Part shown: positions 1,064-1,381 of the stretch, piece after piece
Layout: each line of letters begins with the position of its first letter
Numbering within the stretch: position 1 is the first letter of the stretch
DNA from: Candidatus Woesearchaeota archaeon
Lineage (GTDB): Archaea > Nanobdellota > Nanobdellia > Woesearchaeales > GW2011-AR4
NCBI GenBank assembly: GCA_016181305.1
Contig: JACOZN010000002.1
Coordinates: forward strand, 11,619 to 75,618
Direction of reading: 5' to 3'
Length of the DNA: 64,000 nt
The notes under the pieces: generated by a model
What the model was told of the DNA's origin: nothing
The model's input: the letters and a program-made list of their open reading frames with translations, nothing else
Databases searched by the model: none
Made by a program: the position numbers and the translations under genes

Positions 1064-1381
1064 ATGTTATTTCCGCAAATAAAAAAGAGGCTGAAAAGCT
1101 TTATTCTTGAGGAAGAAGGCAAGATTTCAAAACATTCTGTTCTAAAGATTGGCTCTGTGCTTTTGGCGTCAGGTTTAGGCGCAATCGGGCATGTTTCTGC
1201 TGGGTGCGGTTGCAGTTGTGGTTGCGGTTGCAGTTGTGGTTGCGGATGCAGTTGCGGGTGTGCGTGTGCTGGGTGTGCCAGCGGAGGTGCGGCGGGCGGT
1301 GCGGCAGGTGCCTCTGGTACAAGTGGTACTACAAGTTGTGGTAGTTGTGGTGGCTGTGGTGGAGGCGGCGGCACATGTTAA
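1064..1381 (+). CDS. Putative RiPP precursor peptide: leader plus Cys/Gly-rich core
   Basis: 46-aa charged-then-hydrophobic leader, then (GCGCSC)x3-GCAC...; 16 Cys in a 59-aa core; AT-rich TATA-like upstream region; rSAM/SPASM gene 2.8 kb downstream. Confidence 0.75.
   Translation: MLFPQIKKRLKSFILEEEGKISKHSVLKIGSVLLASGLGAIGHVSAGCGCSCGCGCSCGCGCSCGCACAGCASGGAAGGAAGASGTSGTTSCGSCGGCGGGGGTC
1202..1255 (+). repeat. 18-bp tandem repeat x3 encoding GCGCSC
   Basis: gggtgcggttgcagttgt / ggttgcggttgcagttgt / ggttgcggatgcagttgc. Confidence 0.95.

Follow-up and report, generated by a model that had tools for sequence, protein, structure and literature searches.

Bacterial His-Xaa-Ser (HXS) systems, encoded as HxsD-HxsB-HxsC-HxsA (TIGR03976-03979), were shown in 2026 to act as an anti-phage barrier (Li et al., Nat Commun; PMC13128918). 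In E. coli, the N-terminal processing, modification and periplasmic localisation of the substrate HxsA depend on HxsB, HxsC and HxsD; bacterial HxsA acts in the envelope and stops phage DNA entry, and a +8 Da change of unsolved chemistry has been placed on one His-x-Ser motif (PMC13128918). Related substrates are catalogued as HxsA3 and HxsA4 (NF038309 and NF038313) in DPANN archaea, candidate phyla radiation (CPR) bacteria, Elusimicrobia and Myxococcota. Here we describe a small gene at positions 1064-1381 (+) of a 64,000-nucleotide stretch, hereafter the window, of contig JACOZN010000002.1 of a Candidatus Woesearchaeota archaeon (GCA_016181305.1), in which a leader of the HxsA3 type precedes a core of Cys repeats. 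An earlier note, made by a model that read only the letters of the window and their open reading frames (ORFs), had singled out this gene as a peptide precursor in a DPANN-like organism. The assignment of the organism is borne out; the genome (1.07 Mb at 78% completeness) contains an EF-1alpha gene, and its nearest named relatives are Woesearchaeota.

The locus resembles bacterial HXS in that HxsD- and HxsB-family genes lie beside a small exported substrate, and by analogy its maturation would be expected to depend on a cytoplasmic radical S-adenosylmethionine (radical SAM) enzyme and to be followed by N-terminal processing and export. It differs in that the host is archaeal, HxsB is catalytically inactive, HxsD is duplicated, and HxsC is missing, with a SPASM-domain enzyme resembling the ACGX family (TIGR04340) in its place. 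The locus adds an A24-type peptidase, two gluzincin-like proteins, a binding protein and a family 4 glycosyltransferase (GT4). Its substrate is short and has neither a peptidoglycan-binding domain nor basic His repeats; since the core contains no basic residues, the proposed electrostatic DNA-trapping mechanism is not simply transferable. With HxsA3 and HxsA4 the precursor shares the leader (PKIKKK.xSFLxxEEGKISK followed by a hydrophobic segment), the neighbouring HxsD, HxsB and often A24-type genes, and the size of about 80-140 aa. Unlike them, it has no His or His-Xaa-Ser repeats in its core, only a lone H43-V-S45 at the leader/core junction, and carries 16 Cys instead. Versions of Hxs in DPANN archaea and CPR bacteria are much more diverse than bacterial HXS, which has been published for Pseudomonadota. 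A literature search combining DPANN, ribosomally synthesized and post-translationally modified peptides (RiPPs) and radical SAM returned no title or abstract suggesting a description of this system.

The precursor and its leader family

The peptide is, close to certainly, a hybrid of an HxsA leader and a Cys core; we read the core as ACGX-like. Its parts are as follows.

1031..1040, + strand: TATA-box-like element CTTATAAATA, 25-33 nt upstream of the precursor ATG
1064..1381, + strand: precursor gene with HxsA3-type leader and Cys-repeat core, 105 aa, read from the sequence
1064..1201, + strand: leader, residues 1-46, from the NF038309 match, an alignment of 21 sequences and hydropathy
1202..1267, + strand: (Xaa-Cys)11 block, residues 47-68, partly made of three 18-bp units, from the sequence and Tandem Repeats Finder
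1268..1336, + strand: Gly/Ala/Ser/Thr spacer, residues 69-91, with a single Cys at residue 71, from the sequence
1337..1378, + strand: C-terminal Cys cluster CxxCxxCx6C, residues 92-105, from the sequence

The frame opens with an ATG at 1064 and closes with a TAA at 1379-1381, giving a 46-aa leader and a 59-aa core that is built from 23 Gly, 16 Cys, 8 Ser, 8 Ala and 4 Thr with no other residue type. The earlier note had counted 11 successive Xaa-Cys pairs followed by a spacer and a second Cys cluster, and all three are present: residues 47-68 read three times Gly-Cys Gly-Cys Ser-Cys and then Gly-Cys Ala-Cys, the spacer includes one extra Cys (residue 71), and the tail has Cys at positions 92, 95, 98 and 105, the last being the C-terminal residue. 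C92, C95 and C105 are invariant across the four closest sequences. Tandem Repeats Finder places the 18-bp unit, repeated 3.0 times with 94% matches, at 1201-1254. Exactly three positions vary among the units (GGG/GGT, GGT/GGA and TGT/TGC), and every change is synonymous, as had been noted before; with 10 of the 54 possible single-base changes per unit being synonymous, three out of three would be expected by chance with P ~0.006.

The leader runs from a Lys-rich N-terminus (IKKRLKSF) through Glu-Glu-Glu-Gly and KISK to a hydrophobic segment (residues 26-44, with a Kyte-Doolittle hydropathy of 1.58 over 19 residues) and ends in VSA; the six Lys/Arg within residues 1-24 fit an N-in topology. In an alignment of the focal leader and 20 others of the family, E17 and G19 do not vary, and the N-terminal 25 residues, ahead of the signal-like part, form the best conserved portion of the protein. 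The HxsA3 profile NF038309 matches with an E value of 3.8e-8 (residues 3-37 on profile positions 2-36). The whole-protein score of 33 bits falls below the cut-off of 65 because the match covers the leader half of the model only. HxsA4 (NF038313) gave no match, and the NCBIfam search of the precursor returned no family except HxsA3 at E<=10. By its sequence, then, the leader belongs to the catalogued HxsA3/HxsA4 leader family of DPANN archaea and CPR bacteria.

As the earlier note had proposed, we searched with a profile of the 46-position leader, built from the 21 sequences; of 1.84 billion representative proteins, the members of 819 clusters matched it at E<=1e-3, and the cores of this family are normally of the His-Xaa-Ser type. 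The leader is carried by 20 of the 401 genomes of the same class, and the precursor at 1064-1381 is the only match in the window's own genome. When genome contigs were searched for loci with the four closest leaders, none was confirmed. Nearly all family cores end in true His-Xaa-Ser repeats, with two members exceeding the HxsA4 cut-off. Among the 152 best-scoring family members other than the focal one, just 11 cores reach a Cys content of at least 12%, and the longest run of Xaa-Cys pairs is 5, as against 11 in the focal core. Three metagenomic homologues have leaders ~75-80% identical to the focal one and Cys/Gly-rich cores that cannot be aligned, which agrees with the note's picture of a leader-plus-core precursor whose leader is conserved while its core varies. 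Loci identified with the HxsB profile span Woesearchaeota, Nanoarchaeota, Aenigmatarchaeota, Nanohaloarchaea, CPR bacteria, Elusimicrobia and Myxococcota.

By chance, an 18-bp tandem repeat rich in GC could keep a frame open in a genome that is AT-rich, in which case there would be no gene here. The core is of low complexity and 63% GC, compared with 42% for the whole window, and three further frames are open across the repeat, but the leader evolves as coding sequence (nonsynonymous differences per site, pN, of 0.22 and synonymous differences per site, pS, of 0.60 against homologue P0005), belongs to a family of 819 clusters, and precedes independent Cys-rich cores in at least 8 further sequences. 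The exclusively synonymous differences among the repeat units and the promoter-like box at the right distance also speak against a chance frame. We rejected this explanation as extremely improbable, the leader homology effectively refuting it. The next gene (ATG at 1485) is preceded at 22-30 nt by TTTATAAAT, a box similar to that of the precursor. Viewed against archaeal promoter architecture, the placement of CTTATAAATA suggests that the precursor is transcribed from a promoter of its own into an mRNA with a short leader or none.

The Hxs cassette and its inactive HxsB

The contig extends 11.6 kb upstream of the window, and this part contains the remaining Hxs genes.

L002:7802-10677, same strand as the precursor: cassette of A24-type peptidase, HxsD, HxsD-like and HxsB-like genes, from NCBIfam and Pfam matches

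The HxsD, HxsD-like and HxsB-like genes all lie 1.1-3 kb upstream, and in relatives, too, the cassette is followed by the peptide gene. The match of HxsD reaches 44.5 bits (cut-off 50), that of the HxsD-like protein 46.6 bits with NF038315 (cut-off 41) and that of the HxsB-like protein 113 bits (cut-off 370). The A24-like protein matches Pfam Arc_PepC with an E value of 1e-4, and its two catalytic Asp, D21 (TSYEDxKxGKIRN) and D73 (AGDAKLF), are invariant in 10 orthologues. Across 88 HxsB loci, HxsD occurs in 68, the leader peptide in 56 (nearly always with His-Xaa-Ser repeats) and, within ~10 kb of HxsB, an A24-like gene in 41. The earlier note's expectation that leader homologues would adjoin modifying enzymes thus holds for 56 of the 88 loci.

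The HxsB-like protein has a 21-residue deletion that removes the CxxxCxxC motif, together with a loss of GGEP and of most C-terminal Cys, leaving three Cys in all. Nine orthologues retain these features and score as true HxsB, orthologous proteins of relatives reaching 432-456 bits. The identical deletion is found in 17 clusters of full-length proteins that share 52-86% identity; judging from this distribution, the inactivation of HxsB is old and has been maintained across a clade. We found no second HxsB in the focal genome, 78% complete as it is, and no HxsC (TIGR03977), to which the ACGX-like enzyme alone gave a match, of 49 bits where the cut-off is 268. A complex prediction for the N-terminal 100 residues of the HxsB-like protein with the leader scored 0.00, which speaks neither for nor against binding.

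The A24-type gene at the head of the cassette bears on an alternative in which the product is a membrane-anchored, pilin-like surface protein: the A24 peptidase would cut after Gly19 on the cytoplasmic side, the hydrophobic segment would stay as an anchor or assembly domain, and the displayed Cys tail, modified or not, would serve as an HxsA-like envelope barrier or in attachment to a host cell. Gly at position -1 is a hallmark of the substrates of A24 (prepilin) peptidases, and the invariant Glu17 and Gly19 of the 21 leaders, the N-in charge pattern, the intact catalytic Asp motifs and the presence of A24-like genes in 41 of 88 loci are what this alternative would lead one to expect. The residues that follow the putative cut fit it poorly. 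In a class III signal the hydrophobic segment comes directly after [KR]-[GA], whereas here E-[ED]-G is followed by [KR]-I-S-K-x-S, and six or seven polar or charged residues (KISKHS) separate Gly19 from a hydrophobic segment that is short, only moderately hydrophobic and more like a signal peptide than a stable anchor; moreover, the cassette contains no pilus assembly ATPase or platform gene. Even with the work of bacterial HxsA in the envelope (PMC13128918) in its favour, we consider a pilin-like product unlikely. The earlier note's description of the leader as prepilin-like or Sec-like therefore stands only in part: the signal-like hydrophobic segment, the recurring small residues at -3 and -1 and the A24 gene support it, while the charged KISK after Glu-x-Gly sets the leader apart from canonical class III/Flp signals.

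The radical SAM/SPASM enzyme and the fate of the Cys core

Downstream of the precursor, the window encodes an intact radical SAM enzyme, followed by two genes that accompany it in a relative.

4226..5926, + strand: intact radical SAM/SPASM enzyme, 566 aa, proposed Cys-modifying maturase, from Pfam and NCBIfam matches and orthologue context
5970..7160, + strand: GT4 glycosyltransferase, from family matches and orthologues
7165..8973, + strand: pyrroloquinoline quinone (PQQ)-type beta-propeller protein with hydrophobic segments at its termini, from family matches

The enzyme matches Pfam Radical_SAM (E 1.5e-22) and SPASM (E 8e-12) and is the only intact maturase-type radical SAM protein found in the assembled genome. 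The best of 74 NCBIfam families is ACGX, followed by heme-synthase-like families and, third-best, SbtM at 137 bits. No N-terminal RiPP recognition element (RRE) domain is shown by the enzyme. Orthologues of the enzyme lie beside short peptides with a Gly/Cys-rich C-terminus, a composition shared by the focal core. The focal enzyme differs from ACGX in its lower score, its extra C-terminal domain and the HxsA-type leader of its peptide. ACGX is known from in-silico work only, and a search for the family in the library at hand gave no paper.

Orthologues of the enzyme with 30-40% identity occur in 17 of the 401 genomes of the class. A short Cys-rich ORF with an unrelated leader lies directly upstream of the orthologue in five of seven inspected loci (genomes G327, G220, G038, G211 and G293). 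In G327, a gene with the core GSCGGGCGCGGCSCGGG precedes the radical SAM gene, which scores 317 bits with ACGX, and then a GT4 gene 34% identical to the focal one. Orthologues located in Hxs loci (35-40% identity) accompany HxsA-type cores with 6, 9, 9 and 16 Cys, whereas the median for 62 other cores is 1 (Mann-Whitney p 0.0016, with kinship uncorrected). Altogether the orthologues are paired with Cys-rich peptides in nine other loci. We regard it as likely, by an approximate estimate, that the enzyme acts on the precursor.

At its C-terminus the enzyme has an extension of ~215 aa (5276-5926), whose homologues are the C-terminal domains of radical SAM enzymes of the YydG-like, PapB-like and ACGX-like kinds in other Hxs loci. 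Because this extension is common to several radical SAM classes of Hxs loci, it may be a system-specific adaptor domain. Its Cys motifs (PRC, CxxCxELF and CxxC...C) are kept in relatives and lost in the focal copy and in that of G401, the Woesearchaeota metagenome-assembled genome (MAG) GCA_016187465.1 at NCBI. In G401 a cassette with inactive HxsB is followed by orthologues of the radical SAM enzyme (82% identity), the GT4 (80%) and the PQQ protein (77%).

Taken together, we lean toward the view that the precursor is the substrate, equivalent to HxsA, of a rewired archaeal His-Xaa-Ser cassette, and that it is modified by the radical SAM enzyme at Cys, exported and trimmed. Several observations weigh against this view. 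The enzyme reaches only 190.2 bits with ACGX against a cut-off of 400, and Gly, Ala, Ser and Thr are the only residues of the core that could accept a thioether. At the focal locus the precursor lies 2.8 kb upstream of the enzyme, and the two genes between them seemingly have their own promoters; in G401 the same-leader gene, with a GC-rich core, shares contig and strand with the enzyme gene but lies ~14 kb farther on. The closest relatives, metagenome contigs L154-L156, whose HxsB-like proteins are 84% identical, have the cassette without a radical SAM gene or a leader peptide within 10 kb. Finally, the radical SAM-GT4-PQQ trio is conserved on its own at 77-82% and could therefore serve another substrate.

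That the enzyme serves another substrate is part of a further alternative, in which the precursor is an unmodified secreted metal chelator that would be exported by a Sec-type route and cut at VSA|G, its free thiols binding Cu, Zn, Cd or an Fe-S cluster. With 27% Cys, CxC and CxxC spacing, small residues in the remaining positions and no aromatic or charged residues, the core resembles metallothioneins and phytochelatins. It shares no sequence homology with them, and known metallothioneins are cytosolic and have no leader, whereas the focal peptide has a conserved 46-aa leader, an export signal and a maturation cassette. The occurrence of the trio in G401 without an adjacent precursor favours such a chelator, as do the small residues at -3 and -1 in the closest homologues (VSA, AFG and VFG); in P0017 and P0073, AHA and VYA stand directly before the first core Cys. 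Of 196 family members, 151 have the motif [AV]xA after the hydrophobic segment, as against 101 expected by shuffling, which is only a modest excess and not decisive for signal peptidase cleavage. Against a chelator stand the N-terminal 25 residues, the best conserved part of the protein, of which a plain signal peptide has no need, the recurrence of the leader family in cassettes with HxsB, HxsD and A24, and the pairing of the radical SAM orthologues with Cys-rich peptides in nine other loci. We consider this alternative quite unlikely, modification of Cys being more likely than an unmodified chelator because a radical SAM/SPASM enzyme is encoded nearby. As to export, we found no TatC (PF00902) in the 78%-complete genome and therefore dropped the likeness of ISK.S.LK to a twin-arginine motif.

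On the reading that we prefer, a Cys-modified Hxs substrate, maturation might proceed as follows. In the cytoplasm, the non-catalytic HxsB, the HxsD proteins or both would bind the N-terminal 25 residues of the leader, and the radical SAM/SPASM enzyme would there modify the presented Cys residues. SPASM enzymes are known to carry out both Cys-to-thiooxazole and thioether chemistry (PMC11002830), and candidate products are thioether cross-links of the sactionine or ranthionine type or thiooxazoles like those of SbtM; the GT4 may add a sugar. The hydrophobic segment would then carry the modified core across the membrane. Candidates for removing the leader, singly or together, are the A24-type peptidase, signal peptidase acting at VSA|G and the gluzincins on either side of the precursor. 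The product would be an extracellular or envelope-associated Cys-rich peptide, possibly an envelope effector by analogy with bacterial HxsA, or a metal binder. Sactipeptides and ranthipeptides (SCIFF/CteB, PapB) and thiooxazole RiPPs (SbtM) likewise combine a SPASM-domain radical SAM enzyme with a Cys-rich precursor; the focal enzyme differs in falling far below the cut-offs of these families and in having no N-terminal RRE.

We tentatively propose a more specific scheme, which is rather doubtful in its full extent. In one clade of Woesearchaeota, the inactive HxsB and the two HxsD proteins would act as a leader-binding adaptor only, feeding the poly-(Xaa-Cys) core to a recruited ACGX-type radical SAM/SPASM enzyme and the GT4, so that this ultra-small symbiotic archaeon would export a peptide dense in thioether or thiooxazole modifications, and possibly glycosylated, as a metallophore or envelope defence effector.

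Compared with the systems above, what is new here is the full swap of His-Xaa-Ser repeats for alternating Cys, a conserved non-catalytic HxsB, the recruitment of an ACGX-like enzyme with an Hxs-type C-terminal domain, and the lineage-specific gluzincins and binding protein around the precursor. The locus amounts to a natural domain swap, in which one leader family carries chemically opposite repeat cores, of His/Ser or of Cys, and the enzyme set shifts with the core: HxsB is inactivated and a SPASM enzyme of the Cys-peptide type is recruited. It thereby gives a handle on which protein reads the leader and on how ACGX-type enzymes act on Cys, with 11 alternating Cys making an unusual substrate for thioether or thiooxazole chemistry. 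It also bears on whether ultra-small archaea export Cys-rich peptides for defence or for metal capture.

Flanking genes and related loci

The remaining genes close to the precursor are the following.

210..1010, + strand: gluzincin-like HExxH...EGLA protein, 266 aa, without a signal, from the motifs HETTH and EGLA
1485..3014, + strand: two-domain gluzincin-like paralogue, 509 aa, with HEITH...EGLA and a twin-Arg/signal-like N-terminus, ISRRTVLLKG
3048..4208, + strand: membrane-anchored Peripla_BP_6 solute-binding protein, from Pfam PF13458 (E 3e-21)

The protein at 210..1010 matches Pfam Peptidase_MA_2 weakly (E 0.009) and is a candidate cytoplasmic leader peptidase. Its paralogue at 1485..3014, for which Pfam and NCBIfam searches gave no match, is a candidate extracellular peptidase. 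A homologue of the Peripla_BP_6 protein adjoins the peptide gene in all three contigs of close homologues. The tie of the PQQ protein to the peptide is uncertain. We rejected the gluzincins, the binding protein and the PQQ protein as general components of Hxs systems, none having been found in 97 other loci.

A PIN/DUF3368 and UPF0175/RHH toxin-antitoxin-like pair at L002:10663-11468 (-), 150-955 bases before the start of the window, sits between the HxsB-like gene and the first gluzincin and so separates the cassette from the window. At this site, relatives (L152 and L154-156) have either HEPN/nucleotidyltransferase pairs or one or two pairs of the PIN kind, and it looks like an insertion hot spot. 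Behind the cassette of L154-L156, which includes an inactive HxsB, come toxin-antitoxin-like pairs and genes for an AAA_14 ATPase, an arylsulfotransferase, a phosphodiesterase and a PMT_2 glycosyltransferase, with no block of precursor, gluzincin and radical SAM genes.

Downstream of the PQQ gene, positions 9351-11657 (+) encode a 768-aa protein with a CarboxypepD_reg domain near its C-terminus, a homologue of which lies beside the Hxs cassette of G319 (locus L040). A Peptidase_M23 gene is found near the gene for the Cys-core peptide in the P0001 and P0005 contigs, and a redoxin/thioredoxin-fold gene in one of the two; the focal locus has neither. Further along the window, Rfam tRNA models match 84-132 nt at 55386-55499 (-), 58027-58110 (-) and 63869-64000 (+), where ARAGORN reports none. 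These three long matches are presumably intron-bearing archaeal tRNAs.

Other loci carry HxsA-type leaders in further combinations. The gene at L158:7735-8418 (-), which is on G401:C5, encodes 227 aa with the same leader, a GC-rich core (CACACAGSC...) and then, starting from a Cys, a Hint/intein-like domain (matches to Pfam Vint, PT-HINT, Hint and Intein_splicing with E from 3e-5 to 7e-4, none of them reaching its cut-off). This fusion suggests possible autoproteolytic release or C-terminal processing of the core. At the related Hxs locus L027 (G180:C10:1-14800), an HxsA-type peptide rich in Thr and Cys occurs together with an intact HxsB, two radical SAM enzymes of which one binds B12, the ACGX-like enzyme and a peptide prenyltransferase of the LynF/TruF family (144 bits, cut-off 140). 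In three genes, L083:4104-5741, L097:12685-14250 and L101:3311-4825, an HxsA-type leader and repeats are fused to a C-terminal domain of ~400 aa that belongs to no known family. The domain starts after a Cys-Pro-Phe motif, and the hosts are one Aenigmatarchaeota MAG and two CPR bacteria.

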